64,000 nucleotides of DNA from an uncultured Chthonomonadaceae bacterium (GTDB lineage Bacteria > Armatimonadota > Chthonomonadetes > Chthonomonadales > Chthonomonadaceae), in NCBI GenBank assembly GCA_963835065.1, contig CAWIEK010000060.1, positions 32,001-96,000 of the forward strand, read 5' to 3'. Of this stretch, positions 2,217 through 64,000 are shown one piece after another; the first letter of the stretch is position 1; every line of letters begins with the position of its first letter. A program made the position numbers and the translations under genes. The notes under the pieces were generated by a model. That model saw only the letters and a program-made list of their open reading frames with translations. It was not told the DNA's origin and made no database searches.

Positions 2217-3038
2217 ATGGCCGCCGTTCAATACGAATATGGAGAAACGCTGCTCAAAGTCTCCGGCGTCAACAAGAAACTTGGCGGCGAAACGATTTTG
2301 CGCGACGTTGATCTGGAAGTGAAAGACATTCTGCGCAAAGGGTTCACGCAGGGGCAGGTTATCGGCCTGCTTGGGCCGTCCGGGGTGGGCAAAACCACGC
2401 TGTTTCGCTTGCTGGCGGGGCTGGACATGCCGGACAGCGGCTCTATTATAGTTGAAAACAAGCCCGTTCACCGGGGAATGGTCGGCGTTGTGGCGCAAAA
2501 CTATCCCCTGTTTGAACATCGGACGGTGCTGTCGAATTTGCGGGTGGCGGGCAGATTGGGGCATCTGCCACAAGCGCAGGCGACAGCGCTGGCACAATCC
2601 CTGCTGGCGCGGTTCGGACTGGAAGCGCAGGCCAACAAGTACCCGGTTCAGCTTTCGGGCGGGCAGCGTCAGCGCGTGGCGATTGCGCAGCAGTTCATGT
2701 GCAGCGAGCATTTGCTGCTGATGGACGAGCCGTTTTCCGGCCTGGATCTGGTGGCGCAGGAAAGCGTCTGCGCCTTAATCCGCGAAATGGCGCAAACCGA
2801 TGAACTGAAAACGTTTGTGATCGTCACCCACGACATTGCCGCCGCGCTGGCCGTCGTGGATACCATCTGGCTTTTGGGCCGGGACCGGGACGCGCAGGGA
2901 CGAATCGTGCCCGGCGCGCGTATTCAAGCCGTATACAATTGCGTGGAACGCGGCGTCGCCTGGCGCGAAGACGGCCCCTCCTCGCCGGAATTTTTGGAAC
3001 TGCTGCGCGAAATCCGAACGGTGTTTGTCAATTTGTAG
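2217..3038 (+). CDS. ABC transporter ATP-binding protein (nitrate/sulfonate-like)
   Basis: Walker A GPSGVGKT, signature LSGGQRQR, Walker B LLMDEPFS, H-loop VTHD. Confidence 0.95.
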   Translation: MAAVQYEYGETLLKVSGVNKKLGGETILRDVDLEVKDILRKGFTQGQVIGLLGPSGVGKTTLFRLLAGLDMPDSGSIIVENKPVHRGMVGVVAQNYPLFEHRTVLSNLRVAGRLGHLPQAQATALAQSLLARFGLEAQANKYPVQLSGGQRQRVAIAQQFMCSEHLLLMDEPFSGLDLVAQESVCALIREMAQTDELKTFVIVTHDIAAALAVVDTIWLLGRDRDAQGRIVPGARIQAVYNCVERGVAWREDGPSSPEFLELLREIRTVFVNL

Positions 3039-3122
3039 GGAACAGGGAACAGCAAATACATAAAACATGAGTTTTAGGTAAGCGCTCATTCCCTGTTCCC
3101 TGTTCCCTGTTCCCTGTTCCCT
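3037..3122. repeat. Inverted heptamer arrays (GGGAACA)n/(TGTTCCC)n forming an intergenic hairpin
   Basis: gggaacagggaacag at ~3038-3052 and about five TTCCCTG units at ~3089-3122, ending directly at the next ATG. Confidence 0.85.
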
Positions 3123-4091
3123 ATGCCAATGCCTAAACATAACCGTATCCTCGAAGCCATGAAGGAAAGCTACAACGCGGTCGGCCTTGCCGGGGCGGTG
3201 GCGCTTTCTGCCGCCCTGCTCAATCCCCTGCCGCTGCTGGCCGCCCTTGTCGCCGAGGCTGCGTATCTCCTGTTTGTGCCGGATTCCAAATGGTACGCGG
3301 ATCGGCTGGCAAAGCGTTACGATGCCGAAATCGAGCAGCAACGCCAACTGATGAAGGCGCAAACGCTGACCCTGCTGCGGCCTGAAATGCAGGAGCGGTT
3401 CGCGCATCTGGAAGATATGCGTCGGCAGATAGACGCGCAATCGGCGGAAGACAAGGCGTGGTTTCGGGAAGTGCTGCGGAAACTGGATTACCTGCTGGAT
3501 AAGTTTCTGCTGTTCGCGGGCAAGGAAGTACAGTTTCGCGCTTATCTGGAACAGCTTCAAAACGAAATTCATCCCTCCGGCGGCACGGGCTACGCGCAGA
3601 ATTGGAATGTGGAGCGTGACCGCAATGCGTCGCGCGCCCATTCCCGTGACGCAGAGCGCGATACGCCCCACGCCAAGCGCAGGCTGGTGTCGGATATAGC
3701 GGGAGTTGGCAATTCGTATTCCACAGACGAGTGGACGCAGAAGGTTGTGGGCGAGATACAGGCGCATTACGCGCAGGAAGCCGACAAATTAGGCCAATCG
3801 CTGTCAGCCGAAACGGATGACGCGACCCGTTCCATACTGCAAAAGCGAACCGACATTTTGCAGCGCCGTAATGAATTTGTCGGCAAAATCGGCAGAATAC
3901 TCGTCAACCTGAACCATCAGCTTCAACTGGTCGAAGATACCTTCGGACTAATCAATGATGAAATCCGCGCCCGCTCCCCCGAACAAATACTGGCCGATGT
4001 GGAAGAAGTGGTTGTCGCAACGGATACGATGGCGTCGTCGCTTCAGGAATTGGCTTCCGTCGAGCAGATGATGGCGCGGCTGGCGTCGTAG
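3123..4091 (+). CDS. Hypothetical membrane-anchored coiled-coil protein
   Basis: N-terminal hydrophobic hairpin (AVGLAGAVALSAALLNPLPLLAALVAEAAYLLF) followed by long helical segments; co-oriented with the ABC operon. Confidence 0.7.
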   Translation: MPMPKHNRILEAMKESYNAVGLAGAVALSAALLNPLPLLAALVAEAAYLLFVPDSKWYADRLAKRYDAEIEQQRQLMKAQTLTLLRPEMQERFAHLEDMRRQIDAQSAEDKAWFREVLRKLDYLLDKFLLFAGKEVQFRAYLEQLQNEIHPSGGTGYAQNWNVERDRNASRAHSRDAERDTPHAKRRLVSDIAGVGNSYSTDEWTQKVVGEIQAHYAQEADKLGQSLSAETDDATRSILQKRTDILQRRNEFVGKIGRILVNLNHQLQLVEDTFGLINDEIRARSPEQILADVEEVVVATDTMASSLQELASVEQMMARLAS

Positions 4092-4166
4092 CCCTCAACC
4101 CCCGGCCCCTTCTCCCAAAAAGCCTGGGAGAAGGGGAGCCATGAACATTTAAGGAAAACGCTTGCT

Positions 4167-4955: not shown

Positions 4956-5001
4956 ATTTGATACCGATGCAATGAGCGTTTTGCTTCACAAACAACACCA
5001 T

Positions 5002-5113
5002 CGTAGGGGCGCAATTTATTGTGCCCGCATTGCTGGCGATTGCGATGGGGATGGGGCAATGTCAGGAGCGGGCGCTTGTGCCGAGAGCGGGCGCAATAAA
5101 TTGCGCCCCTGCG
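5002..5113. repeat. GTAG-type REP doublet (REPIN-like)
   Basis: CGTAGGGGCGCAATTTATTGTGCCC ... GGGCGCAATAAATTGCGCCCCTGCG inverted pair. Confidence 0.85.
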
Positions 5114-5135
5114 AAGGTTTATCACAGAGGGCAGC

Positions 5136-5747: not shown

Positions 5748-5790
5748 ACATTCGATGTTCTGTCTCAGCAGACGAAATTAGGGATTAAAA

Positions 5791-9717: not shown

Positions 9718-12442
9718 TTACCTTCGGATGGTGAGCAGGACAGGCGGCGCGGCATTAGAGATGCCGCCTTCGGCCTGCGCTTGCAGGAGCAGGGGGCGGG
9801 TTTGGGGCTGCACCCAGGGTTCGCAGTGCAGCACGATCTGGCGCGTGGTTTCCGCTTCGGGCACGAGGATTCCGTTCAGGCCGATGTTTTGAACGCGGAC
9901 GCCGAAGGGCAGGTTGCGGATGTCAATCGGGACGCGCTTGTTGTAGCCGTTCTGCCGCGTGACGGTCAGTTCCAACGTGGCGTCGCTGCCCGGGTGCAGA
10001 ACCAACTCGCGGACATTGGAAACAACGCGCAGGCTTGGGTTGGGAACGAGGGTAATCCGGCGCGCGGGGTCGGGTTCCAGGGCGCGGGTCACGGTTTTGC
10101 CGCCGATTTGCGCTTCGGCCACAAGGCGAATCAGATTGCGGCGCGGTTGAAACGGCTGCGCCGGGGGAAGCGGAAATCAGCAGGGAAGCGCTTGTTTCTC
10201 CCGCTTCAATGGTCGTGCTTGTCGCGCTGAAACCGGGCGGCAAGCCTTCCAGCCGCATGGTAATCGGGCCGTCGAAACCGTCGTAACGCTCGCACTCCAC
10301 ATTAACGGGAAGCGCCCCCTCGTGGGGCACGGCAAAGGCGGGCGGGCTGAGGCTGAGTTTGAAGTCGGGGCGGGGCGCGTGGAGCGTCAGGCGGTATTTG
10401 TAATCCGGCCCGGCCTGACCTCGCGCATCCGATACGCGAACGAGGTAATCCCCGGTGGCGGGCGGGGTAAATTCCAGATAGCTGTCCTTGCCGTACAAAG
10501 GCCCGCCGTCATCGTTTTCATAAAACACGCGCATGACGGGCAGGCCGTTGGACGTGAACCGGGTTCCCGCCGGGTACGCCTGCACCTTGTACACCGATGC
10601 GCCGATGCTGTGAAATTCCGGCGTCGTGCCGAAATACGCAAGCCGCTGGCCGCGAAAAGCGCGCAATTGCGTATCATCATCGGGGCCTTTGGGCATGGCG
10701 ACAATGCGGGTCACTTCGCGGCCAATCAGCAGATAATCGTTCAAGCCGATTTCGTTGAAGGTCAGCAGGCGCAGGGCGGGAATGGCCGAGTCCCGTTCCG
10801 CCAGCGTCAGTTCCATTTGCGCGGTTGCCCGCAGCACCGCCCGCTCGACAGGCTTGCCCTGCGCGTCCAGAACCTCAATCTGCGAGTCTAAGGGCGATTT
10901 CATCCGCCGCGCGTTTACTTCCAGGCAAAGCGTTTGCCCCTTATCGGCATGAAAGCGGAACGTATGCGCGGGCGTACTTGTCGTTGCGCCCGCTTTGTCC
11001 AATATTCCCGCAATGGCGCAGGGAACCGGAACGCGCTGCTGTCCCGTTACAGCTTCGGGCGTCTGCGTTACACTGGTATCTACGGACGCAACGCTCATAT
11101 TGGCTGGCGCGACGGTTCCGGCCTGCCCCTGTTTCAACGCCGTATCTACTTCCGGGTTGATGAAATAGATGGCGGCGGATACGGGCGGCTGTGACGAGTT
11201 CAAAGCGTTGAGCGTTGAGCGTTGAGCGTTAAGAATGAAATTGATGGACGTGGACAGGGGCGCTTTACGCAAGACTCGAAGGATTTTGCCCGTGTTCGTG
11301 TCGTAAAGCGTGAGCGCGCCATCGTGGCAGGCAACTGCAAGCGTGTGGTCATCCGGGCTGATTGCCAATCCCTGCGGCCAATCGGTTTGCGCTGGAAACA
11401 TGCGCTGTTCCGCAAGCGTGTTTGCGTCCCACTGCTTGACGGTTTTATCCTCGCTCGCCGTGTACAACTTCTTGCCGTCCCGGCTGTAAACCACGCGCAA
11501 AACCGCCCCGTTGTGCGCAATCGCCGCACGCGCCAACGTGCCCCCACTTGCGGTCACATTCCACACGCGCAGGCTCTTGTCCGCGCCCGCCGCCGCAATC
11601 TGCCGCCCGCCCGGATGAAACGCAACGCTGTATAATTCCGCCGTTGAATCGTTGAGCGTGTACAGCCGCCTGCCCGTAAGCGCGTCCCACACCTTTACGG
11701 TACGGTCGCCCGCCGCGGAAGCCAGCCATTTCCCGTCTGGGCTGAACGCCACGCCATACACCGCGTCGGTATGGTCGCGGAGGAAGGAGGGGGAAGACAA
11801 GGATGAAGGATGAAGGATGAAGGATGAATCCTCTCCTTTTCTCCTTTTCTCCTTTTCTCCTTTTCTTCCTTCTGTTCCCTTCCCGACGTTCCACAGAATG
11901 ACGCTGTGATTGTAACAGGCTCCTGCAATCTGAGTGCCGTTGGGACTGTAGGCAAGGCTATACAGCGCGTCGCCCGCTCCCGAAATCGTGGAAATGGCAG
12001 GTGAATCGTGTTGTTTTGCTCCGGCAGGCTGTGCATTGCCACGTATTCGTTCCACCACGCTGCTGATACCGGCGTTGCCATGCGCAATCGCGTACTCCTG
12101 ACCGTTGGGAGAATACGCCAGTGCGGAGCAGACTTGCCCGCCGGACAAGGCGCGCGTTTGCAGCCGAACCCCGGTATGCGCGTCGAACGTTTGCGCCCCG
12201 CCCGCGCCACACGCCACAACACGTCTTCCATCCGGGCTGAACGCAACCGTCGTCAGTGACGCTGACGCGCGTATGGGAGCCGGAACGCCACTCCGCGCCA
12301 ATTCCCGCGTTTTCACTTTCCCTGCGCCCTGTTGTCCCATCGTTGCGGAACAAAGCGACATTGCAAGCGCTGTCCAACTCAGTACGCGAACGGGTACACT
12401 CTTATACAAGCCGGTACATTCCATCAATTTTTTTCCTGCCAC
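9718..12442 (-). CDS. WD40-repeat plus pre-peptidase-C (PPC)-like domain protein, frameshift near 10130
   Basis: Repeated HTDAVYGVAFSPDG..D.TVKVWD; DGGPLYGKDSYLEFTPPATGDYLVRVSD; C-terminal part continues in ORF 9718-10122. Confidence 0.8.
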
Positions 12443-26120: not shown

Positions 26121-26306
26121 TCACCACAGAGACACAGAGACACAGAGGTTTCACAGAGAAAAACGAAAAAGAGAAGATATAAGATTTAAGATACAAGATA
26201 CTAGCGGGAGGGATCGCAAGCGTGTTCTCTCCTTGAGTAATCCTGTCTATTTCTCCTCTTTTCCCTCCCTCTGTGAAACCTCTGTGTCTCTGTGCCTCTG
26301 TGGTGA
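26121..26306. repeat. Long inverted repeat built from CACAGAGA units, with AAGATAC/AAGATAT heptamers inside
   Basis: TCACCACAGAGACACAGAGACACAGAGGTTTCACAGAG versus CTCTGTGAAACCTCTGTGTCTCTGTGCCTCTGTGGTGA; the same arm recurs at ~44260-44290. Confidence 0.9.
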
Positions 26307-27255: not shown

Positions 27256-27497
27256 GGTGTCATTCTCCTTGAATTGGCTCCCATCGTTCCTCCGACAGAA
27301 GCCCTGAGCAGTTGAGAGTTGGAAGTTCGTAGTTGATAGAGATACCGGAACCGCGAACTTTCAACGACTACTCGTTTAGTGAAAAATCAGAGCGGATAAC
27401 GCTGTATTCACCACCAACAAGAAAACGTCCTGCACAACAGCGAACCACTCAGACACGAATTTCACTTATATCTCATATCTTATATCTTATATCTTCC

Positions 27498-28867
27498 TCA
27501 AATGCGTCGGGCGCGTTTGGAAAGGGCTTTTTGCGTGGTCGTGACGGGCTGGCCGGTGGCGACAAAGGCGCGCTGCATCATCTGGAAGAACGCGGCTTTT
27601 TCCGCGCCGCGCACAATCGCCTGCTCGTGCGCTTCGGCCAGCGCGACAGGGTAGCCATCCCCCTTACGCGCCTGATCCCAGCACAGCGTATGCGTGAGTT
27701 GCAGCAGTTCGGGATCGTCACTGACCCATGCGGGGATTTCCACGCGCGCCACTTCCCGCCCGGTGTGCAGGTAAAAGAAGCGGATGCGTTGGGTAGGCGC
27801 GTAAGCGTTGAGGATTTGCGAACGCGACCCGAAAACGGCGGAGCGCTCGCCCGGCTGCAAGCAGGCACGCGAACAAATCGGCATCGCGCACCATTTCGGT
27901 TCCCGCGCACGGCGGCGCGACGTACTCCGGCTTGGGCTTGCTGTGCTGCGGGCAAAATCTATCGCAATTGGACAACTCGTGCGGACACGCAAACACGCGC
28001 AGGGCGTTGACCACATCCCGGCTTTGCGGCGCGCTGATGTACCCCGCAATCGGAACCCGCATTGCTTGCGCCTGCTCCAGTAATCTCTCAAACGCCAGAA
28101 TGGAAGCCGCCCGAAACGCCTCCTGCTCCGTTTCCAGCGGCCATAAGATCAGGCTGCCGTCGAAGAGGGCGATAGTTGATAGTTGATAGTTGATAGTTGA
28201 TAGAGCAGGAAGTGATGAGTGATGAGTGATGAGTGATGAGTGTGCATCCAATTCATCATTCATCATTCCGCGTTCATCACTGTTTTTGCCTGTTCCCTGT
28301 TCCCTGTTCCCTGTTCCCTGTCCTGCTGTCTCCTTTTCTTCTTTTCTCCTTTTCTCCTTTTCTTCCCCTGCTCCCATCAACTCTACCAGCCCTTCCACTT
28401 CAGCGAGCAGGCGGCGGATGGCGAGGCGTTTGGGAACGATGGCGGCTTGTTCGCCTTGAAATTCGTCCAATAGTTCGTCTTCGGGCAGGGCGAGATAGGG
28501 GCGGGAGGTTAGGGTGGCGCGTTCGCCCGTGCCGTAGCGCAGAGCGATCAGGCCGATGTTGAGGAGGTAGCAGAGGGCAATGTCGTGGCGGTCGGAAACG
28601 ATCTGCGAACCATCGGCGGCAAACACGGTGCAGGGCAAAGGGCAAGCAGGAGGCGCGTAAACCACATCGGGCGGCTCGTGCCAGGAAGCGATCAGCCAGG
28701 AGGTTTTGGAGTCGCGGATTTTGCCCCGCGTGGCTTCCCACGTTGGCCCCGAACGCGGTCAAACGCCGCTGCGCTTCCCGCATCGCCGCTTCCAAACGCG
28801 GCAGCGAACTCGCCCGGTCGCTGGCGAAGGTTTGTATTTGCGTGAATACCTGGGTGAAGTCTAGCAT
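27498..28867 (-). CDS. nurA: NurA-family nuclease with frameshifts (~28750, ~27860) and a ~65-aa repeat insertion
   Basis: FAADGSQI, LFDGSLILW, ARVEIPAW, GYPVALAEAHEQAIV spread across ORFs 28400-28939, 27718-28665 and 27498-28091. Confidence 0.85.
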
Positions 28868-28986
28868 AGTTGATAGTTGATAGTTGATAGTTGATAGTTG
28901 ATGTACTAAGCACAGGCTGTTGCGAACAATTTGCAGCAACCTTGCAAATCAGATGCCTATCAACTATCAACTATCAACTATCAACT
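28868..28986. repeat. Inverted heptamer arrays (TAGTTGA)n/(TCAACTA)n forming a hairpin directly upstream of nurA
   Basis: About five TAGTTGA units, a spacer, then about four TATCAAC units. Confidence 0.9.
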
Positions 28987-35414: not shown

Positions 35415-37295
35415 TTATCCTCCCACCGCCCAATTCAGCCCCGTATAGCGGCGGTAGCCATAACAGCGGGCGATATGAACGTAGCGGATAGGCGTGGGGC
35501 TGCCGGCGCGGCGGATGGGGAAGGGCGGGTCCCATTCGACGCGCTCAAAGATTTGGCGCAGGTCGTTTACATCGGATTCGCCGTCGTTGAAGAAAATCGC
35601 GTTGTCGCCAAGATGCGCTTCCAATCGTTCCACGTGCGCGGCGTACATCGTCAAGCGCCAGTGCAGGAACATATCGTAAGTGGGCGGATGATCCGGCAGG
35701 TAAAACCCCATCAGGGCGCAATACTGGTAGCCGTTGCCCGCAATAAACACCGGCTGCCCGCTTTTTGCCATGTCCTTCCGAACTTCCTGCACATGCGCCG
35801 CCAAATCGCGCCAGCCATACATCTGCGTAGTCACATCATCTTTAGGCTGCAAGCGTATGCCAACGGCTGACCGCAATTCCGGCGACAGCATCAACACGGT
35901 CAGCAGGGCGCTCGTGAGGAAGATAGTTGATAGTTGATAGTTGATAGTTGATAGAACAGGAAGTGATGAGTGATGAGTGATGAGTGATGAGTGTGCATCC
36001 AATTCATCATTCCTCATTCCGCGTTCAGCATTGTCTTCTGTTCCCTGTTCCCTGTTCCCTGTTCCCTGTTCTTCTGTCTTCTCTTCTTCTTTTCTCTTTT
36101 TCTTCTTTTCTTCCAAGCGAAGCGCCGCCCACCCCGCCCACAAAATAGTCGGCGTGATCCAGGCGCAGGGGGCCCAGTTGGCCTGTACCTGTGACCGCAG
36201 CGCCATCAGACAGAAGAACAGGAGGACGGGGAAGCCGTGACAGAAGAGGAACAAGGTTTCAGGTGTTCGGGTGTTCAGGTGTTCAGATATTGGGTATTCG
36301 GTATTCGGTGTTGCATCGTAGAGTTTGTTTGCTCTGACTTCTTCTGAGGAGGCGCGTGAATACCTGAACACCTGAACACCCGCCGCAACACACGCAAGAA
36401 ACAAGCCGGGGCCGAGCAGGAGGGCTTGCGAACCGATGAATTCACCTAAGCGGGATAGCGGCGTATGTTTGGTTTTGTAGGCCAAGTAGCCCAGATGCCC
36501 GAACGTCCACCAGTGGTGATGCGCGTTCCACCACAGGACACCCACGTACAGCAGCAGGGTTATCAGAAAGGCGGCGTAGGGTTCGGGACGGCGCAGCCAT
36601 TTGCGATGCGGGGGCGAAATCAGCAGGAACAGCAGCAGGCAGGGCAGGAGGAGCAGCATTGTGTGCTTGCTGAGAAACCCCAGCCCGACGGCAAGCCCCG
36701 CCCACAGCCACGCGCGTTTTTGACCGGCTTCGTTGGTTCCGAACAGGGCGCGTTCCAGAAACACGAGCGCCAAAGCCCAGAAGAACACAAGCGGGGGATC
36801 GTAAGTGGCGATAAGGCTGCCGACGGTCAGGAGCGGGGTTGCGGCGAGAAGTACCACCGTCAGAAATCCGGCGAGCGGCGAGAAAATGCGCTTCGCCAGA
36901 ATATACGCGCAGATTAGTGCGCCCAAACAAGAGGCCCATACCCCAATTCTTACCCCGAATTCGTTGGTTCCGAACAGCAGGGTTGTCAGGCGAATCAGAT
37001 AGGCGATGAATGGCCCCTGATCGTAGTATCCCCACGCGAGATGCCGCGACCAATCCCAATAGTAGGCTTCATCCGGCGCGAGTTCCACGCGCCATAATTG
37101 CGTCAGCCGCAGCAGGGAAGTGATTAGCAGGAACCAGAACGTGGCGCGTTCCCAACGGCGTGTTTCGGTGTTCAGGTGTCGGGTGTCGGGTGTCGGGTGT
37201 TCAGGTATTCGGGTGTTCGGGTGTTTGGTATTGGGTGTTTGGGCGTTGTGAAACTCTTTACCGGGATTGATGTTTGTGATTTGGCGTGAAGGCAT
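35415..37295 (-). CDS. ArnT/PMT-like glycosyltransferase (GT-C) with three repeat-derived insertions
   Basis: ELAPDEAYYWDWSRHLAWGYYDQGP, GLGFLSKHT, QANWAP; the ATG overlaps the upstream gene's TAA. Confidence 0.88.
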   Translation of the reverse strand: MPSRQITNINPGKEFHNAQTPNTKHPNTRIPEHPTPDTRHLNTETRRWERATFWFLLITSLLRLTQLWRVELAPDEAYYWDWSRHLAWGYYDQGPFIAYLIRLTTLLFGTNEFGVRIGVWASCLGALICAYILAKRIFSPLAGFLTVVLLAATPLLTVGSLIATYDPPLVFFWALALVFLERALFGTNEAGQKRAWLWAGLAVGLGFLSKHTMLLLLPCLLLFLLISPPHRKWLRRPEPYAAFLITLLLYVGVLWWNAHHHWWTFGHLGYLAYKTKHTPLSRLGEFIGSQALLLGPGLFLACVAAGVQVFRYSRASSEEVRANKLYDATPNTEYPISEHLNTRTPETLFLFCHGFPVLLFFCLMALRSQVQANWAPCAWITPTILWAGWAALRLEEKKKKRKEEEKTEEQGTGNREQGTEDNAERGMRNDELDAHSSLITHHSSLPVLSTINYQLSTIFLTSALLTVLMLSPELRSAVGIRLQPKDDVTTQMYGWRDLAAHVQEVRKDMAKSGQPVFIAGNGYQYCALMGFYLPDHPPTYDMFLHWRLTMYAAHVERLEAHLGDNAIFFNDGESDVNDLRQIFERVEWDPPFPIRRAGSPTPIRYVHIARCYGYRRYTGLNWAVGG

Positions 37296-38333: not shown

Positions 38334-39272
38334 ATGCAAGTCTCACGGAGAAAAGTGAACACAAAACGTTTTCAACGCGCTGCCTTTTTCGCAGCCCTTT
38401 TAACAATGTATGCGGCGGGATCGCATGTCGCCGCGCAAAATAAGTTTGCTAGTAAGGCTTCCAAGACCAGCATACCCCTGATACATATACCGGCGTTGAG
38501 CCAAAAGGAAGCCGAACCGCCTGCCGATGTTACCACATCCGACGCGCATCACCTGTTCCCCTGGGAACAACATGCGCCGGGCGGGAAGCCGGACTCCCTG
38601 GGCGGTTTCTCGATGGTCAATGTAATCGCGGGAGATAAGCAGCACGGCTTGTCCGTCGTGCAGCTTGTGCGCGGCGATGAGCATCTCAAAGAGATCGCGC
38701 TGACATTTGACGACGGGCCGCATCCGCCGTTTACCGAACGCCTGCTGGACTTGCTCAAGCAATTAGATGTGCGGGCAACCTTCTTCGTTGTCGGGCGCAA
38801 GGTGGACGCCGCGCCGGAGATTCTGGCGCGGATGGTGGCGGAGAAACACGATGTCGCCAATCATACGTATCATCATGTAAACCTGAAAACGTTGCCCTAC
38901 GGACTGGTGGAAAACGAGATTCGGCTGGACAATGACGCCATTCGCCGCGCCTGCGGGAAAGAGCCGGTGTTTTTCCGCCCGCCCGGAGGCCAGCGCAACG
39001 GCGAAGTGGTAGAAATCGCCCGCCGCCTGGGGATGAGTACCCTGTTGTGGACGGACGATCCCGCCGATTATGCCAATCCGGGAGCCGACATTATCGAGGA
39101 AAAACTGCTGCAGCATGTGCGCCCCGGCGCGGTCATCCTGCTGCATGACGGCGTAGAGCAGACCTATCAAATGCTGCCCGACTTGGTTGCCAAATTGCGG
39201 CAGCAAGGCTATAAATTCGTCACCGCCACCGAAATGGCGCAGCACCTGGAGGCGTCCAGTCAGACGAAGTGA
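38334..39272 (+). CDS. Polysaccharide deacetylase (NodB/CE4)
   Basis: IALTFDDGPH, ANHTYHH, FFRPPGG, VILLHDG. Confidence 0.92.
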   Translation: MQVSRRKVNTKRFQRAAFFAALLTMYAAGSHVAAQNKFASKASKTSIPLIHIPALSQKEAEPPADVTTSDAHHLFPWEQHAPGGKPDSLGGFSMVNVIAGDKQHGLSVVQLVRGDEHLKEIALTFDDGPHPPFTERLLDLLKQLDVRATFFVVGRKVDAAPEILARMVAEKHDVANHTYHHVNLKTLPYGLVENEIRLDNDAIRRACGKEPVFFRPPGGQRNGEVVEIARRLGMSTLLWTDDPADYANPGADIIEEKLLQHVRPGAVILLHDGVEQTYQMLPDLVAKLRQQGYKFVTATEMAQHLEASSQTK

Positions 39273-39282
39273 TGAGTGATGA

Positions 39283-42200
39283 ATGATGAATGATGAATAT
39301 AGCGAACAGAAAAATGATGAACGAGGAGTGATAAATGATGAACAAAATACAAATTCCAATTCATCACTCATCACTCATCACTCATCACTTCCTACGTTGC
39401 CTGTCTTTTACGACGAGCAGAAACTGCGCTGGCCCTGGCTGAAGCGCATGGCGGTTGTCGGCGGATTGGTGGGGATTTTGGCGGCTGTTGTATTGGCCGT
39501 CAGTGTTTTTGCGCCTGCGCTGCTGCCGCGCAATCCCCTGCCCCGCGCTACAACCGTGCGCGAAATAGGCAATCAAGACCCGATTCTGTCGCATTTTGAA
39601 CAGCGCCCGCACTTGGCGCAAACCAATCCGCCCATGACGCGCCTGCAGCGTCGGCAATTGGGCGTTAAGTTTACGCGAGACCGCCAGAAACTGGAAGCCT
39701 ACACCCGCCGCGAACAAAGCAAAGCCGCGGAAAACGCCCGCCGCGCGCAGGCGTTCCTCCAGCAATGGCCGAACCAGATAAAAGGGCAGGGCCTCACCGC
39801 CGGCGGCGTCATGCCGTTTGGCTACGAGGACGAAGGGAACAGGGAACAGGGAACAGGGAATAGAAAAGAAGAAGAGAAGAAGAGAAGAGAAGAGAAGGCT
39901 CAACACCCGACACCCGACACCCGACACCCAACACCCGTTGTCGCGGCGTTTTACGTGAACTGGGAAGAAACGTCGTGGGCGTCGGCGCAGCATAACATGG
40001 CGCATTTGACGCACTTTTTGCCGGAATGGCTGCATCTGAAACAAAAGGGCGCGGATGTGGGCAGTTCCAATCCCAAAACCCTGCCGTTTCTGGATGCGCG
40101 GGACGACAAGGACAAAACGGACGTTGTCAATCTGGCGCATAGCAACAGTGTGCCGATTGTGGTTTTGCTCAACAATTATACGCGGCCTAAGAACGAGGAA
40201 GAGGGCGAGGGCAAGTGGGATACGGACGCGGTACACGCGCTCGTTTCTGACCCGAAAGCGCGGCGCAATTTTGCGCGGCAGATGCGCGACTGGCTGCTTG
40301 CCAACAAATTGCAGGGCGTCAACATTGATTTTGAGGAAGTGGCGGAACAGGATCGCGACGGCCTGACGCTGTTTATGCGCGAATTGTATACGGCCCTGCA
40401 CCCCGCGAAATTGCTGGTGACGCAGGACGTGCAGGTGGAAGGCGGGGCGTATGACTTTCCCGGTTTGGCGAAATGGAACGACTGGCTTGTGCCGATGTTC
40501 TACGATGAGCATGAGTCCAGCAGCGGGCCGGGCGCAATCGCGGGCATAGATTGGACGCACAAGCATCTGGACGCGCTGCTGTCGCAGGTAGACCCATCTA
40601 AAGTGGTTATGGCGGTGGGACAGCAAGGCTACGATTGGACAAAGGGCGTGGCGGGAACCGAGTCGCTGCGCTACCAGACCGCAGTGGTTACAGCCAAAGA
40701 GTCTTACGACGGTAAGGGCATGGATGGCGTGATTCGCATGGACCCGGCCAGCCTGAACCCGATGTTTACCTATTCCGAGGATACGCTCGACAAGAACAAT
40801 CAGGCGCGGCAGGAGGAGCATACCGTCTGGATGCAGGATGCCGCCAGCGTGTACAACCAATTGCTGCTCGCCCGCCCGCATGGAATACGCGGCGCGGCGT
40901 TGTGGATGCTCGGCGCGGAAGACCCGACGATTTGGAGCTACTACGACAAAAACCTCTGGAACGGCGATTGGAAGCAGATCGTTGCCGGGGGCGCGCTAAA
41001 TACGATTTCTTACGGCGGAACGGGTGAGATTGACTTCACGGCGGAGGGCGAATTGCTCCAGCCCGTTGCCGAGCCGACAAGCGGACAGCGGACAATCACG
41101 CAGGACCCGAAAACGGGCATGATTACGGCGGAAGCGTACAAGATTGACCCCATAACCAACCGGCCCTTGATGCCGTCTTCCTACATCGTGCGTCGCTACG
41201 GGGGCAAAACGGGCAACCCGGCCAAGCAAATCGTGCTGACGTTCGATGATGGCCCCGACCCAACATATACGCCGCAGATACTCGACATTTTGAAGCGGTA
41301 TCACGTTCCCGCCGCGTTCTTCGTTGTCGGCAAAATGGCGGAAGCCAACCCCAACATCGTGCGGCGGATGTGGGATGAGGGGCACGAAATCGGCAACCAT
41401 ACGTGGGATCACCGCGACCTTGCCGAACTGACGCCCACCCATCAGCAGATTGAATTGACGGCAACGGAGCGCGTGATTCAAGCCCTGACCGGACATTCGA
41501 CAACGCTGTTTCGCCCGCCGTATGGCAACGACGTGGAGCCGACAACGGGGGCGGAAGTGCGCCCGCTCGATCTCGCCGCGCAGATGAACTACCTGACAGT
41601 CGGGCAAAAGATTGATCCGCTGGATTGGGCGCTGTACAAGTTCAAGCCGGGAACCGAGGCTTTTGATTACACGCAGCCCAAAACCGCGCAGGATATTGTC
41701 AATGGCGTGTGGGCGGAAAAGGATCAGGGCAGCATCGTTTTGCTGCACGACGCGGGCGGCGACCGAACGCATACGGTTGCCGCATTGCCGCAGATTATCG
41801 AAAAACTGCGGGCGGGCGGCTATACGTTCGTATCCGTGTCGCAGTTAAGCGGCATACCCCGCGAAAAACTGATGCCACCGATTACGGGTAAGGACATTTA
41901 TCTCGCGGGCGGCGACCGCATGACGTTTGAAGCGGCGTATCTGTTCCAGATTACGCTGACGACCCTGTTCATGCTGTCCATCGTGCTTGGCACTTCGCGG
42001 GTGCTGCTGTTCGTGGGATTGGCGCTGATACAGCGGCAGCGCGAAAAAAAGCGCGTGTTCCCCGTGGGGTTTACGCCTTCCGTGTCGGTCATTATCGCCG
42101 CGTACAATGAGGAAAAGGTCATCGGGCGCACGATACAGGCATTGCTCGACAGCGGCTATCCGAATCTGGAAATCATCGTCGTAGACGACGGCAGCAAGGA

Positions 42201-43278: not shown

Positions 43279-44238
<960 letters not shown>

Positions 44239-50208: not shown

Positions 50209-52635
50209 ATGGAAAATAACACCAACCCCGCTCTCTCAGCAACGCCCGCGTTTACGCCGCTCACGCTGAAAGCCGTTTTTGAAGACAAGATTTTCGACGC
50301 CAAACAACTGCGTCAGCCGCATTGGATGAAGGACGGCAGGCGATTTTGTTTTCTGGACATTCTGCCCAATACCGAAATCGTCACCGTCTGGATGTACGAC
50401 GTGGATAAGGGCGAACGCGCCCCCCTGATTTTTGCCGACGCGCTGAAACAGGCGTGGAAAGCAAATACAAGTCAAGAGGCGATAGCTAACCAACAGGAAG
50501 CGAGCCAACAAGAACTAAATCAACAAGCAACAAGTCAGCAAGCCGAAGCGAGGCAGCAGGAAGCAAATCAGCAAGACGTCAGCGTCGGTCAAGAAGCAAG
50601 CGCCGGTCAAGATGGAAAAACGGACAAGGGCAAGGAAGACGCGCTTGTCATTCACGGCTACCAGTGGTCGCCGGATGAAACGCGCCTGCTGTTGGCGCGT
50701 CTGCCGCGCCCGCACGATGCAGAAGGCGATAAGGCGCTGTACATCTACACGCCTGTCGCGCAACATCTGGAATGTATCGCGCAAACCGAGCAGGAATACC
50801 GCAACGTGAAATGGTCGCCGGACGGACGCTGTTTGGGTTACGTAAAGGCGGATGACCTTTACCTGCTCGATCTGGAAACCAAAACCGAAACCCGGCTTAC
50901 CGACACGGCCTCGCCGAGCCGGTACAACGGACGCTTCGGTTGGGTGTATCAGGAAGAACTCGATCTTGTAGACGGCTGGGCATGGTCGCCGGACGGCAAG
51001 TGGATCGCGTACTGCGAGTGCGACGAAAGCGCGGTTCCCCTCGTTCCCCTCACGCGCTACGAAACCCTCCACCTCGAACCCGAACTCCAGCGCTACCCCA
51101 AAGCCGGCGACCCGAACCCTGTTGTGCGCGTCGGCTGCATCAACGTAGGGAACCGGATAAACCACGGGGAACACGGGGAACACGGGGAGGAAGAAAAGGG
51201 AGAGATACAAGATACAAGATATAAGATACAAGAAGGGCACTCCCTATCAACTATCAACTATCAACTATCAACTGAAGACTCTTCCTCCTCTGACTACCTT
51301 GCCGGATTCCATTGGACGCCGGACAATCAACTGCTGGTACAGCGGATTCCCCGGCTGCAAAATACGCTGCATTTGCTGCGTCTCGATCCGGCGACGGGCG
51401 AAAGTACGCTCCTGCTGACAGAAACGGACCCGGCGTGGGTGGATGCGCGGGGCAAGATTGTGTTTGTTGGGGAGACAGGGGAATGGCTGTGGCCTTCGGA
51501 CCGGGACGGGCACAATCACTTGTATTTATATGACCGTGATGGCGCTTTGCTACGGCAAGTGACGGCGGGGGCGTGGGATGTGGAAGCGCTGCTCGGCGTG
51601 GATGCCGAACAAAGGACAGCGTTCTTCAGCGCGGCGCGGCAGAACGTTTCTCAGCGCGAATTATGGGCTGTTTCGCTGGATGGAAGTGAACCGAAGCAAA
51701 TTTCGCAAGCAGCAGGCTTCCATCGCGCCCTGTTTGCCCCGGACGGCAAATTGTACTTGAATACCGTTTCCACGCGGGCTGCGCCGCCACATACGGATTT
51801 GCGGCAGGCGGATGGAAGCCTGATTGCGCAAATTCTGGACAATCCCCTGCCGCAGTTGGAAGCGTATCGCGCCGGAATGGGGCAGTGGGAGTTTACTTCC
51901 TTTCAAACTGCGGACGGCATGACGCTGAACGCCATGCTGCTGCGTCCGCCGGATTTCGATCCGTCGCGCAAGTATCCCGTTTTGATGTACACGTATGGCG
52001 GACCGAACTCGCAGGTGGTATTGGATACATGGGGCAGCAGGGTGGGATTAGAGCAGCTATTGGCGCAGCAAGGCTACATTCTTGCGCTTGTGGACGGGCG
52101 CGGTTCCGGGATGCGAGGGCGCGAGTTCAAGAAATGTACCTATCTAAACCTGGGCAAGTATGAAGTGGAGGATCAGATTGCGGGCGCGAAATGGCTGGCC
52201 CAATTGCCGTATGTGGATGAAGAGCGCATCGGTATCTGGGGCTGGAGTTACGGCGGCTACATGACGTGCCTGTGCCTGCTGCATATAGCGGACGTGTTCA
52301 AAGCAGGCGTGGCGGTTGCGCCCGTGACCGACTGGAAACTCTACGACAGCATTTACACGGAACGCTACATGCGCCGCCCCGAAGACAACCCGGACGGCTA
52401 CGCGCAATCTGCGCCGCTCACCCATGCCGAGCAATTAAAAGGCCGCTTCTTGCTGATGCACGGCCTGGACGACGACAATGTACACTTCCAAAACGCCGCG
52501 CAACTTGCCGCGCTGTGGCAACAGCGCAACAAGCCCTTTCAAATGATGGCCTATCCCGGCAAGCATCACGGCCTGGAAGACGTCGCGCCGCACTGGTCAC
52601 AGATGTTTACCGAGTTCATTCTGGCGAACCTGTAA
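50209..52635 (+). CDS. Dipeptidyl peptidase IV (S9B) with low-complexity and repeat insertions
   Basis: WVYQEEL, YPKAGDPNP, YGGPNSQ, GWSYGG, YDSIYTERYM, HGLDDDNVH. Confidence 0.93.
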   Translation: MENNTNPALSATPAFTPLTLKAVFEDKIFDAKQLRQPHWMKDGRRFCFLDILPNTEIVTVWMYDVDKGERAPLIFADALKQAWKANTSQEAIANQQEASQQELNQQATSQQAEARQQEANQQDVSVGQEASAGQDGKTDKGKEDALVIHGYQWSPDETRLLLARLPRPHDAEGDKALYIYTPVAQHLECIAQTEQEYRNVKWSPDGRCLGYVKADDLYLLDLETKTETRLTDTASPSRYNGRFGWVYQEELDLVDGWAWSPDGKWIAYCECDESAVPLVPLTRYETLHLEPELQRYPKAGDPNPVVRVGCINVGNRINHGEHGEHGEEEKGEIQDTRYKIQEGHSLSTINYQLSTEDSSSSDYLAGFHWTPDNQLLVQRIPRLQNTLHLLRLDPATGESTLLLTETDPAWVDARGKIVFVGETGEWLWPSDRDGHNHLYLYDRDGALLRQVTAGAWDVEALLGVDAEQRTAFFSAARQNVSQRELWAVSLDGSEPKQISQAAGFHRALFAPDGKLYLNTVSTRAAPPHTDLRQADGSLIAQILDNPLPQLEAYRAGMGQWEFTSFQTADGMTLNAMLLRPPDFDPSRKYPVLMYTYGGPNSQVVLDTWGSRVGLEQLLAQQGYILALVDGRGSGMRGREFKKCTYLNLGKYEVEDQIAGAKWLAQLPYVDEERIGIWGWSYGGYMTCLCLLHIADVFKAGVAVAPVTDWKLYDSIYTERYMRRPEDNPDGYAQSAPLTHAEQLKGRFLLMHGLDDDNVHFQNAAQLAALWQQRNKPFQMMAYPGKHHGLEDVAPHWSQMFTEFILANL

Positions 52636-59400: not shown

Positions 59401-59406
59401 CGCTGT

Positions 59407-61530: not shown

Positions 61531-61735
61531 AAGCCGGTGGGTATAGCAGTTGGGTGTCGGTGCAGATGGAGTGCGAGAGATTGTCGAGAAGGAATATGAA
61601 ATGTCGGGTGTCGTGAAGGAAAATAGAGAAGGAATCCGTTACTCGGCGTCGAATGATACCGATAACGAAGTCGCCTGACGTGTCCCGACACCCGACACCC
61701 GATACCCGACGACCCTTCCTAAAGGACAGCCGTAA

Positions 61736-64000
61736 ATGACCCCCACAGTACCGAAGCAGACGAGTCATTTTACATCACGGGGGGAACGCTTCCGCCCGAT
61801 GCGCGTTCCTACATCGCCCGCGATGCCGACGACGCCCTGTACAACGCCCTGCTTGCCGGCGAAACCTGCTACGTCCTCAACAGTCGGCAGATGGGCAAAA
61901 GCAGCCTGTGCGTTCGCGCAATGGGCAGGCTGCAAGACGCGGGGGCGCGTACCGTTTTCCTCGATCTGTCCAAGTTCGGCGCCAATAACCCGACCGTAGA
62001 ACAATGGTACTTTACGCTCCTCAACGAAATCGGCAGGGAACTCGATTGTCGCCCCGCCCTGTTCGCGTACTGGAAGCAAAATGACGCCCTGCCGTTCGTG
62101 CAGCGCGTGTTCGGCGCTCTGACCGACATCGCGCTGCCCGCCGCCCCCTCCTCCATCGTCGTGTTTGTGGACGAGATTGACATCACGCGGACGCTGCCGT
62201 TCGAGACGGACGAGTTCTTTGCCGCGATACGGCAACTCGTGGTGGGCAGAGCAACGGACGCGAAGCTGAAGAAGTTGGCGTTCTGTCTGTTGGGAACCGC
62301 CGCGCCGCAGGACCTCATTCAAAACACGGCCATCACGCCCTTCAATGTCGGCAAGCGCGTGGAAGTGACGGACTTTACCCCGCAGGAAGCCGCGCCCCTT
62401 GCAGAAGGATTGAACCACGGGGGACACGGGGAACACGGGGGAAAGCGGGAAAGGGAAAGCAGGGGAGAGAAACTGCTGCAACGGGTATTGTATTGGACCA
62501 ACGGCCACCCCTACCTGACGCAACGCCTATGCAGCGCCATAGTCGAAGCCCAAACTCCTCCTCCGACACCCGACACCCGAAACCCGATACCCTCTCCTCG
62601 ACACCCGACACCCGACACCCGACACCCTCCGTGGACTCCCTCTGCCACAACCTCTTCCTCTCCCACGCGGCGACGGAAAGCGACGACAACCTTGCCAATG
62701 TGCGCAACCGCCTGCTCAAAAACGACGCGGACATGGCTTCGCTGCTCACGCTGTACGGGCAGATACGGGAAGGCAAGCGCGTACCGGATGACGAAACCAA
62801 TCCCCTCTGCGCGTTGCTAAAGTTGAGCGGCGTGGCGAAAGTGGAAAACGGTTTGTTGAAGGTACGCAACCGCATCTACGCGACCGTGTTCGATGCGAAG
62901 TGGGTCACAACCCACATGCCGGACGCCGAACTGCGACGGCAGAAGGAAGCGTACCGCAAAGGCGTGACGCGAACAGGAGCGTGGGCGGGAGCGATTATCA
63001 CGTTGTTTGTCTGTCTCGCCGCGTTCGCCTTCTCCAAAGCCAACGAAGCCCAAAGCAATGCAAGAGAGGCTCACAAACAGACCAGGTTGGCGCAGCAAAA
63101 TGCGCAGTTGGCACAACGAAATGCTGAGAAGGAGACTGCTGCCCGCGCCGACGCCGACAAAAGCGCGCAGCAGGCTCGTAACAATGCGCAGAAAGCACAG
63201 AAGCAGACACAACTCGCCAAACAACGTTTGAAGGACGTACAAAAAGCCAACTCGGCTACCCAAAAGGCTCTCACGAAAGCACAGCAAAATGCCATAGAAG
63301 CTAGGAAACAGGCACATCTTGCCTCCGACAACGCCCGTCGCGCGGAGCAGGCCAACGGCAATGCTTCCAAAGAGAGCGCGACACGCTCGCAAGGCAGAGC
63401 AACTCGCGCTAGAAGAGAAAGACAAAGCCAACCACAACCTGTACGTTGCCAACATGAACCTGATACAAAGGGATTGGGACAACAACAATGTCGGGAGTGT
63501 ATTGGAGTTGTTGGAAGCGACACGCCAACGATACTCCCACGAGTTCGAGTGGGGATACTGGAACCGCCAGTGTCATCTGGATTTGAAAACGCTCAAAGGG
63601 CATACAGACGATGTTGATGCCGTCGCCTTCTCTGCCGACGGCAAGCGGATTGTCACGGGCAGCAGCGACAAAACGGCGAAGGTATGGGATGCGCAAACCG
63701 GACAGGTAACACTTACGCTCAATGGGCATACGAACTTTGTTACTGCCGTCTGCTTCTCTCCCGATGGCAAGCGGATTGTCACAGGCAGTTGGGACAAAAC
63801 GGCCAAGGTGTGGGACGCGCAAAGCGGACAGCCACTGCTCACGCTCAAAGGGCATACAGACAATGTTGATTCCGTCTGCTTACTCTCCCGATGGCAAGAG
63901 GATTGTCACGGGAAGTAGGGACAACACAGCGAAAGTGTGGGATGCGCAAACCGGACAGGAAATACTTACGCTCAAAGGGCATACTCCCAGTTACTATGCC
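61736..64000 (+). CDS. AAA_35/STAND ATPase + TM + coiled coil + WD40 protein (several frameshifts; runs off the window)
   Basis: FYITGGTL, SRQMGKSSL, VFVDEID, TPFNVG, WTNGHPYLTQ, TM segment, LKGHTD.V.AVAFS.DGKRIVTGS.DKTAKVWD repeats. Confidence 0.82.

Follow-up and report, generated by a model that had tools for sequence, protein, structure and literature searches.

The DNA analysed here is a 64-kb stretch, called the window below, in which short tandem arrays of 7-, 8- and 9-nt words are found both between and within genes; an exact-run scan detected 29 period-7 runs (at least 17 nt), 3 period-8 runs (at least 19 nt) and 1 period-9 run (at least 21 nt). Some of the arrays face each other as inverted pairs. 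The pair AGGGAAC (3037-3052) / TTCCCTG (3089-3122), identified by Tandem Repeats Finder and the exact-run scan, fills the gap between the ORFs 2217-3038 and 3123-4091 (3037..3122), and the RNA of 3030-3128 is predicted to fold with -37.8 kcal/mol (z -6.0). The 8-mer pair CACAGAGA / CCTCTGTG (26125..26302; Tandem Repeats Finder) sits between ORFs 24835-26100 and 26314-27255. The intergenic pair ATAGTTG x5.3 / CTATCAA x4.3, separated by a 54-nt spacer (28866..28986), lies in a region (28860-28992) whose two strands are each predicted to fold with -63.2 kcal/mol (z -10.3). On the plus strand, the pair TGATGAA / TCATCAC (39270..39389) lies across the boundary between ORF 38334-39272 and ORF 39283-43149 and gives the peptide SSLITHHS, with a predicted fold of -47.9 kcal/mol (39265-39395; z -8.0). 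A worn heptamer hairpin of 73 nt with AGTTGAG-type arms (27304..27376) is missing from the related-strain contigs of two metagenome runs (X1 and X3), where 27303 is joined directly to 27377.

Within genes, the WD40 ORF (9923-12442, minus strand) carries in frame AGCGTTG x3.9 (11204..11230), read as NAQRSTL and detected by Tandem Repeats Finder, exact-run scan and peptide search, as well as AAGGATG x4.3 followed by the 8-mer TCTCCTTT x4.9 (11799..11878), read as SFILHPS and EKEKRRKGE. A composite block is in frame in the NurA-like ORF (27718-28665, minus strand; block at 28171..28363), in the order GATAGTT x4.7, AGTGATG x4.6, ATTCATC, a non-repeat linker, CCTGTTC x4.7 and TCTCCTTT. A second copy, 92% identical and also in frame, is found at 35922..36113 in the PMT_2 ORF (35415-37526, minus strand); the composite block is common to both, although the glycosyltransferase is unrelated to the NurA-like protein. 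The same PMT_2 ORF contains the 8-mer inverted pair AGGTGTTC / TGAACACC (36254..36380) and, in its N-terminal part, GGTGTTCG / GGTGTCG arrays giving the peptide HPTPDTR (37167..37247). AGGGAAC x3.9, a purine-rich run and ACACCCG x5 (39834..39937) are in frame in a GH18/deacetylase/GT2 fusion ORF (39283-43149, plus strand), while GATTGCC, CTGTTCC and CTTCTGT arrays (43672..43779) constitute the linker joining the two CbiX domains of ORF 43279-44331 (minus strand). Finally, the DPPIV_N propeller of the DPP-IV ORF (50209-52635, plus strand) holds CACGGGGAA x2.9, AGATACA x4.4 and CTATCAA x4.3 (51163..51273), and CACGGGGGA 9-mers with CCGACAC arrays (9.3 copies, imperfect) are located at the end of the AAA_35 ORF (61891-62820, plus strand; arrays at 62416..62629). 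A sequence-only reading of the window had named these recurring units, and Tandem Repeats Finder recovers them where it had placed them. Of the units taken for heptamers, the AAAGGAG-type and CCTGAACA-type ones are 8-mers and CACGGGGAA is a 9-mer. The ten stereotyped peptides that it had assigned to at least seven proteins were all found, in seven or more ORFs (WD40, NurA-like, PMT_2, GT2 fusion, CbiX, DPP-IV and AAA_35).

The host is a soil bacterium of the Armatimonadota, Chthonomonadaceae-like and related to Chthonomonas. In its 8.0-Mb genome (assembly 92% complete), the genome-wide period-7 enrichment that the sequence-only reading had proposed to look for is evident: an exact scan for arrays of at least three copies returned 1,330 of period 7 vs 32 of period 6, with 31, 123 and 6 for periods 5, 8 and 9, respectively. 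The period-7 excess is real and far above chance. The run-length curve of period 6 declines steadily from the 14-nt threshold, and that of period 7 peaks at 23-27 and 30-33 nt (the mode) and collapses at 35 nt, with a sharp stop at ~34 nt. Arrays comprise ~4 to 4.9 words, arranged as inverted pairs and mixed strings. The vocabulary amounts to 68 words, the top five of which (AACAGGG, the commonest; AACTATC, AATGCCT and AAGGATG; and ACTACTG, the fifth) account for 702/1,330 arrays (53%); the commonest 8-mer is AAAAGGAG.

Heptamer repeats of cyanobacteria are known as STRR, a name that reportedly dates from a source of 1990. Like these and other heptanucleotide simple-sequence repeats, the arrays described here show a period-7 excess over other periods, consist mostly of ~4 units, are mainly intergenic and in some cases form stem-loops as inverted pairs. 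They differ from STRR in the size of the vocabulary (dozens of words, against one to three), in the copying of mixed strings and of a 115-nt composite as whole units, in the frequent in-frame use within genes and in the link with S23p cassettes. A cyanobacterial host, which the name STRR needs, was rejected: the closest named relatives are Chthonomonadales/Chthonomonadaceae metagenome assemblies. Since the host belongs to the Armatimonadota, STRR is an analogy here and not the host range of these repeats. Long heptanucleotide repeats are reported from Calothrix and Nostoc, among the cyanobacteria, and from Xanthomonas (GGGAATC) (PMC4692102, in excerpt). Direct repeats of another heptamer, TAACTGA, occur patchily among taxa (Beggiatoaceae, Cyanobacteria, Bacteroidetes), with 2-6 copies immediately before the start codon; one word dominates there and inverted partners are rare, with one 'indirect repeat' (PMC4679880), whereas here the words are many and pairing is the rule.

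The intergenic copies had been described as inverted pairs, which is true of many and not of all: in the whole genome, 228 same-word inverted pairs were counted among 2,066 arrays of at least 18 nt. At a spacing of 45-75 nt, 208 inverted same-word pairs are found vs 2 direct ones; arrays otherwise adjoin arrays of different words. The spacers measure ~57 nt (peak 54-58 nt; GC 44%) and are unique in 178/228 cases. In the ACTACTG hairpins (n=64) the inner palindrome is common to all, though worn, and the arms are perfect. The composite element, of 115 nt, combines mixed arrays with a conserved non-repeat linker that has 55 occurrences in this genome and none in 40 relatives; nhmmer returned 442 matches, 152 of them near-full. 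The spreading units are ready-made elements, namely the composite with its conserved linker and the hairpins with their conserved inner palindrome, and they often enter slots already holding arrays.

MITEs and REP/BIME mosaics are small non-coding palindromic elements with inverted ends, located between genes and spread in lineage-specific bursts. The elements of this genome share these traits, the same-word inverted pairs representing the terminal inverted repeats, but their interiors are mostly unique, no target-site duplication is visible by eye at the 64 ACTACTG copies or at the junctions of an S23p cassette (C8), and no transposase partner with matching ends was found in the genome. The Y1/RAYT-like genes have other ends, the RAYT-like ones being flanked by their own REPs and not by arrays. 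The sole ORF with ends matching the arrays encodes S23p, which is no known transposase.

Selection for translatable arrays, as proposed in the sequence-only reading, is borne out by the copies inside genes. Genes were called by our own codon-score test, which scores only 51% of random 28-mers as coding, so that in-coding counts are lower bounds; by this test 256/1,329 arrays (19%) lie in coding sequence, vs 1,533/3,000 random sites (51%). Words with stops on one strand occur in coding sequence on the open strand only (AACTATC 34:0, ACTCATC 23:0, AAGGATG 0:22), in agreement with the proposed stop-free rule, which is forced because three units cycle through all frames. For words that are stop-free on both strands, the hydrophilic strand is the coding one in 154/160 arrays (154:6), compared with 47:29 outside coding sequence. 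Furthermore, length differences between species are multiples of three in 7/7 coding clusters. A translation filter acts on the in-gene arrays: only open and hydrophilic strands are read, fewer arrays are coding than random sites, and the frame is kept.

Rickettsia palindromic elements are dispersed palindromic repeats of 100-150 nt that have entered numerous unrelated protein genes in frame, the additional peptide being tolerated. The composite is tolerated in the same way, one dispersed family being in frame in unrelated genes (68/152 near-full copies are coding, 64/68 of these in a single orientation); here, in contrast, the host is not Rickettsia and the elements are modular, made of tandem 7-nt words that turn over at a fixed site. 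In Borgs, the units of in-gene repeats are reportedly multiples of three. The 7-9-nt units described here, in short and capped arrays, allow one word to be read in all three frames, unlike those of Borgs. Borg tandem repeats evolve fast, lie between and inside genes and give disordered low-complexity peptide regions (bioRxiv 10.1101/2022.05.18.492195, in excerpt).

Comparison with relatives supports a recent, lineage-specific process that spreads the arrays, with some families multiplied in this species alone. This genome has 88 ACTACTG arrays, vs only 2 loci in the congener G002 (matched as CAGTAGW x3) and 1 in the congener G001; array density differs 20-fold between congeners with the same genes, and arrays are absent in two sampled relatives. 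Empty orthologous sites were found in G002 for 2/7 mapped pairs and 1/4 mapped composites, and in G001 for 1/8 mapped pairs. Judged by eye, about 15/19 mapped G002 clusters coincide in position with arrays of G000, and the shared slots often hold another word, with both arms changed together. The DPP-IV insert measures 189 nt in G000 and G002 and 105 nt in G001, with different words; the CbiX linker slot is 153 nt in both genomes compared, again with different words. At the corresponding gaps, G001 contains non-repeat sequence of similar length (106 vs 106 nt in one case), a finding as compatible with in-place overwriting as with insertion. Of the active process that had been supposed to write mixed arrays, the recent spread is confirmed; what spreads are the ready-made elements, and nothing in the data shows fresh writing.

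The search for an Avd-like four-helix-bundle gene flanked by arrays was positive outside the window. No S23p gene (PF05635) lies within the 64 kb, but three are present on other contigs, scoring 112-136 bits against a PF05635 cut-off of 33.8 and above the cut-off of TIGR02436, with a match to PDB 2gsc_A (E 1.5e-18). To our knowledge, no catalytic function is known for S23p. Each of the three stands between inverted arrays, as do 20/21 S23p genes examined across 14 genomes, with heptamer stems of ~28 bp; the words that frame the three (AACAGGG, ACTACTG and AAAAGGAG) are among the commonest of the host. G023 has two S23p cassettes, whose words are also the two most frequent in that genome, and G005 has a single word, that of its cassette. 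In 280-400-kb samples of seven related, hence not independent, genomes, period-7 arrays per Mb and S23p gene counts were 166/3, 72/2, 60/2, 2.5/1, 7.5/0, 0/0 and 0/0. Identity between S23p proteins follows the similarity of their arm words, and the cassettes with 8-mer arms form one protein cluster. The C8 cassette (~465 nt) is an insertion relative to both congeners, G002 having 22 nt in its place and G001 33 nt. The agreement of words between cassette and genome could also arise if S23p genes were merely framed by common arrays. Three of the five commonest words (AACTATC, AATGCCT and AAGGATG) have no S23p cassette in the 92%-complete assembly; the PF05635 search gave no match in G015, which has GGGAACA arrays (51 pattern matches), or in G001, which has few arrays. 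Moreover, the inner ends of the ACTACTG hairpins are unlike those of the ACTACTG cassette, so the hairpins are not its simple deletion derivatives. The suggested link to an HUH transposase or a reverse transcriptase failed: no transposase, HUH enzyme or reverse transcriptase tracking the arrays was found.

A related arrangement is the ORF-bearing intervening sequence of 23S rRNA in Coxiella burnetii (helix 45) and Leptospira, regarded as a selfish element, in which a PF05635 ORF lies between terminal inverted repeats; in Coxiella the stem is of 28 bp, the GACAGAT heptamers vary in number and RNase III cleaves (PMC4990558, in excerpt). The cassettes of this genome share the PF05635 ORF, the stem of ~28 bp and the variable heptamer copy number. 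Here, however, all three cassettes with an ORF are located between protein-coding genes, and the 23S rRNA genes hold an ORF-less AACAGGG hairpin of 131 nt at another helix, in place of an 8-nt loop of the 23S model. Hundreds of ORF-less relatives accompany them, and the predicted stems would be candidate substrates of RNase III.

The explanation that we favour, at somewhat better than even confidence, is that the arrays are the arms of hairpin elements, likely gene-less relatives of the S23p cassettes and likely spread by copy-and-paste. New copies would favour the gap between stop codon and ribosome-binding site and slots already carrying arrays. Within genes, a copy would survive only if it leaves the frame open, lengthens the gene by a multiple of three nucleotides and is translated into a hydrophilic loop or linker, presumably a disordered one. 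Slippage by 7 nt at a time, together with copying from arm to arm, would keep the repeats of an array identical even as its word drifts or gives way to another. The predicted RNA stems of ~28-33 bp would be substrates of RNase III, by analogy with published rRNA intervening sequences. S23p might bind the arms and aid copying, which is the least supported step.

Two other explanations appear unlikely. According to the first, the arrays are simple-sequence repeats that arise in place when the polymerase slips by 7 nt on chance heptamer duplications (a hypothesis attributed to a 2007 survey cited in PMC4692102, in excerpt), and S23p is a bystander. Slippage homogenisation predicts arrays that stay perfect while neighbouring sequence decays, as observed, but array lengths are peaked and capped instead of decaying. 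Several gaps are equal in length with and without arrays, and the G002 DPP-IV array CCCTCTC resembles the ancestral local CCCTCTA seen in G001; against local origin stand the restricted vocabulary, the copying of non-repeat linkers and inner palindromes along with the arrays and the near-exclusive inverted pairing. A heptamer excess occurs in many unrelated bacteria (PMC4692102, in excerpt), yet congeners with the same genes differ widely in array density and two relatives lack arrays.

The second, selection by the host for hairpins acting as RNA processing sites, terminators or translation insulators, with the in-gene copies as side effects, is also improbable. The pairs do occupy the space between a stop codon and the next ribosome-binding site, and 176/228 lie between co-directional genes, but the proportion is comparable among all junctions (4,191/5,825). 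The stems are very stable by predicted fold, and in the intervening sequence of Coxiella the heptamer stem is cleaved by RNase III (PMC4990558, in excerpt); the composite, however, folds worse in its mRNA-sense than in its antisense strand (-26.4 vs -38.8 kcal/mol), and many copies lie within enzymes, where a processing site would harm. AATGCCT and ACTACTG have stop codons in all frames on both strands, and TAACTGA repeats upstream of start codons have been proposed as regulator sites (PMC4679880, in excerpt), but orthologous sites here hold different words, and gene junctions of G001 and G013 work without these hairpins. Very unlikely, lastly, is a retroelement working like the diversity-generating ones, in which words would be copied from RNA into DNA by a reverse transcriptase together with an Avd-like S23p. 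In its favour, the content of the slots changes at constant length and PF05635 proteins are homologous to Avd (PMC10053308, in excerpt). The three S23p proteins, however, match the Avd model weakly (27-33 bits, equivalog cut-off 80 bits), neither of the two reverse transcriptase genes of this genome shares a contig with any of the three S23p genes, and a search for RVT_1 found none in G005 or G023, both with cassettes and arrays, but did in array-poor G001.

Beyond the favoured origin of the arrays as arms of hairpin elements, a broader proposal is offered tentatively, as a possibility that we consider doubtful: S23p, a pentameric, Avd-like four-helix-bundle protein, might be the mobility factor behind a hitherto unrecognised class of bacterial mobile elements, whose ends would be made of up to five 7-9-nt words, whose gene-less offspring would be the heptamer repeats (STRR and kin), and which would continually add and rewrite disordered enzyme loops. 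If this were true, heptamer repeats, a puzzle since 1990, would be explained as the gene-less offspring of S23p elements, and the disordered loops of ordinary enzymes would be constantly gained and rewritten by such elements.

The repeat places and units named in the sequence-only reading were recovered in the window both by Tandem Repeats Finder (103 rows) and by a scan for exact runs, which gave 29 runs of period 7 (at least 17 nt), three of period 8 (at least 19 nt) and one of period 9 (at least 21 nt). The vocabulary is heptameric for most units, but those of the AAAGGAG and CCTGAACA types have a period of 8 nt and CACGGGGAA one of 9 nt. All ten stereotyped peptides ascribed to the repeats are present, in seven open reading frames with ordinary Pfam domains (WD40, NurA, PMT_2, a GH18/deacetylase/GT2 fusion, CbiX, DPP-IV and AAA_35), and a search of the window for Rfam families gave zero matches. 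Two other repeats were seen in the window: a 126-nt tandem repeat at 63589-63984, where the window ends (3.1 copies, 81% matches), whose unit has the length of one WD40 blade (42 codons), and a 29-nt unit present twice at 24510-24567 (93% matches), which has no relation to the heptamer words.

Judged from sequence comparison, the host is an Armatimonadota soil bacterium and not a cyanobacterium; the class I fumarase encoded in the window shares 79-83% identity with proteins of assemblies labelled as Chthonomonadales or Chthonomonadaceae, and the next best matches, from other phyla, reach 60-72%. Its genome (8.0 Mb in 71 contigs, 57% GC), with the window at C60:32001-96000, bears out the predicted genome-wide enrichment of period 7, with 1,330 exact arrays of at least three copies versus 32 of period 6; the corresponding counts are 31 for period 5, 123 for period 8 and 6 for period 9. 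Plain slippage was considered as an explanation of this excess, and the run lengths speak against it: those of period 6 fall steadily from the threshold, and those of period 7 cluster in two peaks, at 23-27 nt and at 30-33 nt, with a collapse at 35 nt, so that five full units are almost never reached. When rotations and reverse complements are merged into one word, the arrays comprise 68 words, of which the five commonest (AACAGGG, 192; AACTATC, 174; AATGCCT, 149; AAGGATG, 99; ACTACTG, 88) make up 702 of the 1,330 arrays. Some array loci are duplicated with identical flanks on pairs of contigs (C43/C69, C55/C26, C27/C29, C26/C62 and C49/C51); these may be real duplications (rRNA operons, in the case of C49/C51) or assembly redundancy, and copy counts may be slightly inflated.

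The spacing of 2,066 arrays of at least 18 nt revealed a regular anatomy, with two peaks in the distance between successive arrays, at 5-24 nt and 45-75 nt. Neighbours at the shorter distance carry different words in 246/269 cases; at the longer distance the same word is found inverted in 208/274 and direct in 2/274. The genome holds 228 such inverted pairs, with a median span of 113 nt and spacers of 44% GC, 178 of which have no relative among the other spacers. The predicted stems are highly stable (-63 kcal/mol, z -10, for that at 28860-28992 of the window) and would be substrates of RNase III. The 64 pairs made of ACTACTG have in common a worn inner palindrome between perfect arms, which measure about 2.7, 3.7 or 4.7 units; slippage, together with copying from arm to arm, would keep the arrays perfect. 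In a G.U test for a stem at the RNA level, single mismatches between arms were compatible with wobble on the antisense strand in 30 cases versus 8; these counts are not independent, because most come from copies of one composite, and were given no weight. By eye, no target-site duplications were seen at the 64 ACTACTG copies or at the junctions of the C8 cassette described below. On contig C3, two AATGCCT hairpins (220000-220116 and 223917-224034), whose spacers are mutually reverse-complementary, bracket about 3.8 kb, possibly an inversion or a composite element.

Inside genes, several words are combined in one recurrent block. The blocks at 28171-28363 and 35922-36113 of the window are 92% identical; the first is read in frame in a NurA-like protein and the second in the unrelated PMT_2 protein, and a profile of their 115-nt core gave 442 matches in the genome, 152 of them near-full. 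This composite core comprises four copies of AGTGATG, ATTCATC as a short partner for a hairpin, a linker that is not repetitive and four copies of CTGTTCC, and is optionally bordered on either side by other arrays. With a conservative coding test (the frame open and the codon score positive over 150 nt on each side), 68 of the 152 near-full copies lie in coding sequence, a share equal to that of random 205-nt spans (835/2,000), and 64 of these 68 share one orientation. The linker occurs in 55 copies in the genome (with at most two mismatches) and in none of the 40 relatives searched, both congeners among them, which indicates that the composite family multiplied after the species split.

Translation acts as a filter on the arrays, which are depleted from coding sequence (256/1,329, versus 1,533/3,000 random sites). 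As had been claimed, a word that carries a stop on one strand is read in genes solely on the opposite strand, which is unavoidable once at least three 7-nt units follow each other. Words without a stop on either strand show a bias of almost the same strength: it is the strand encoding the hydrophilic peptide that is translated in 154/160 arrays, and in 28/30 when isolated arrays are taken; for arrays not called as coding, the ratio is 47:29. The expected constraint on length modulo three was likewise found, since differences in length between the genome and its congener G002 are multiples of three in 7/7 coding clusters (14/19 overall), by which the host genes are kept intact.

Inverted pairs fill the entire interval between one gene's stop codon and the ribosome-binding site that precedes the next gene, and host-selected signals were considered as a further explanation of the arrays; comparison of orthologous sites shows that these persist as slots and that their content turns over, by insertion or overwriting. 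In the DPP-IV propeller, the interval from NPVVRVG to the conserved W-T-P block measures 105 nt in the congener G001 and 189 nt both here and in G002, with CACGGGGAA, GATACAA and CTATCAA here and a AAGGAGAA-type unit, GCAATCG and CTCCCCT in G002. The CbiX interdomain linker measures 153 nt in these same two genomes, with three arrays of different words in each, and consists of 171 nt of ordinary sequence in G001. From a 400-kb sample of G002 with 35 array clusters, 19 were mapped, and about 15 of them, judged by eye, have arrays at the same place in the genome under study, often with another word or one that is 1-2 bases off; both arms change in step (AGATACG/CGTATCT versus AGATATA/TTATATC; CAGTAGA versus CAGTAGT). 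In the reverse direction, seven inverted pairs mapped in G002 correspond to two empty sites, four arrays of other words and one worn pair, eight mapped in G001 to one empty site and seven non-repeat sequences of similar length, and four composites mapped in G002 to one empty site and three other arrays. Among relatives about 95% identical, one 73-nt presence/absence difference was seen in Logan contigs of four metagenome runs, which are short and end at arrays. DPP-IV also carries a Gln-rich insert (QQEASQQELNQQATSQQ..., residues ~88-135, window 50470-50620) that is missing in 10/10 aligned orthologs and includes a loose CAACAAG run of period 7 at 50521-50543; it may be an old, decayed string of arrays.

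Closely related genomes differ in how densely they carry period-7 arrays. The density per Mb is 166 in the whole genome under study and, in 280-400-kb samples, 72 in G002, 60 in G023, 7.5 in G001, 2.5 in G005 and 0 in G013 and G014 (G005, G013, G014 and G023 being further relatives); three copies of GGGAACA gave 340 matches here, 7-51 in five relatives and 0 in 35 others.

A 23S rRNA gene contains one AACAGGG inverted pair (C49:339096-339193; C51 holds an identical copy), and 131 nt there stand in place of an 8-nt hairpin loop at ~1892-1900 of the 23S model. The gene (C49:338082-341304; positions 2583-5805 of the extracted locus L251, minus strand) measures 3,223 nt against a model of 2,925 positions, the extra sequence being this 131-nt hairpin and ~170 further bases. 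Intervening sequences of 23S rRNA are known from Coxiella, where an S23p open reading frame, a 28-bp terminal stem cut by RNase III and GACAGAT heptamers in variable number are described, the heptamers being noted there solely within the intervening sequence (PMC4990558). S23p (PF05635) is the four-helix-bundle protein of such sequences; those of this genome match TIGR02436 and PDB 2gsc, which is reported to be a pentamer, made of four-helix bundles and with homology to Avd (PMC4990558, PMC10053308).

Among the genes proposed as neighbours of arrays, the four-helix-bundle type proved to be flanked by them, outside the window, and the HUH transposase and reverse transcriptase did not. The genome has three S23p genes, all outside the window and all in cassettes, i.e., between inverted arrays: ACTACTG on C8 (the fifth commonest 7-mer), AACAGGG mixed with AACCTGT on C25 (AACAGGG being the first) and the 8-mer AAAAGGAG on C33 (the first among 8-mers). 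Over 14 genomes of the order, 20/21 S23p genes are framed by inverted arrays, each with its own word; the exception, on contig C49 of the relative G039, has purine-rich direct repeats. In the sample of G023 the two commonest words match its two cassettes, one of them on a different contig, and in that of G005 the sole cassette shares its word with 9/9 arrays, at two loci separated by 15 kb. S23p gene counts (three here, two in G002 and G023, one in G005, none in G001, G013 and G014) follow array density across the seven sampled genomes with exceptions: G001 and the relative G015 have some arrays and no S23p match, and no cassette goes with three of this genome's five commonest words. Pairs of S23p proteins with at least 70% identity have arm words differing by a mean of 1.4 bases, versus 3.3 below 35% (Spearman's coefficient -0.28 over 120 non-independent pairs), and the 8-mer-armed cassettes form a single protein cluster; gene and arms thus descend together as a unit. 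One insertion of a cassette is visible on C8, where ~465 nt lie between conserved flanks that are separated by 22 nt in G002 and by 33 nt in G001. The C33 site measures ~200 nt in G001 and 231 nt in G002 (L244, C14, 2234-2465), where, without S23p, the 9-mer inverted pair CACGGGGAA / TTCCCCGTG surrounds ~150 nt with further short repeats.

Same-word inverted arrays 200-900 nt apart form 26 pairs in the genome, and the non-S23p genes between such arrays are ordinary ones, rpsG and rpsH among them, whose two ends each have a hairpin of their own. The four PF01797 (HUH/RAYT) matches include two full Y1/RAYT-like genes (C42:76532-76870 and C51:103107-103445), each bordered by its own inverted REP-like palindromes, which bear no relation to the heptamer arrays; a single array, of AATGCCT, comes closer than 1.5 kb, lying 1.4 kb from the gene on C51. 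A retroelement as writer of the arrays was also considered, but RVT_1, present in this genome and both congeners and not found in G005 or G023, shows no tie to them. We infer that the gene-less hairpins and strings would be offspring or kin of S23p cassettes; more speculatively, S23p itself might drive the copying, and the limit of fewer than five words might reflect a pentamer.

Cyanobacteria, Xanthomonas and other bacteria have been known for more than 30 years to carry heptamer repeats, and to our knowledge no origin or function has been established for these. The repeats, their four-unit habit and the inverted pairs have already been published (PMC4692102), as have repeats ahead of start codons (PMC4679880). 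In a literature search whose coverage did not extend to subscription journals, no work was found that links genome-wide heptamer arrays to PF05635 genes or describes such repeats in Armatimonadota. What this genome adds, besides a new phylum, is the composite found in genes, the rule of the hydrophilic strand, the agreement between cassette and genome words, the proof by empty sites and the 23S copy. The behaviour of the repeats is that of mobile hairpin elements with a modular build, some families of which burst in a single species, and the design and words that they have in common with S23p cassettes, known as ORF-bearing intervening sequences in rRNA, provide a candidate protein for testing. 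The arrays also steadily supply enzymes with new stretches of hydrophilic peptide, sister species having different words in the same loop or linker. Through these three results, mobile hairpins, features shared with S23p cassettes and new peptides, the origin and function of heptamer repeats become testable.
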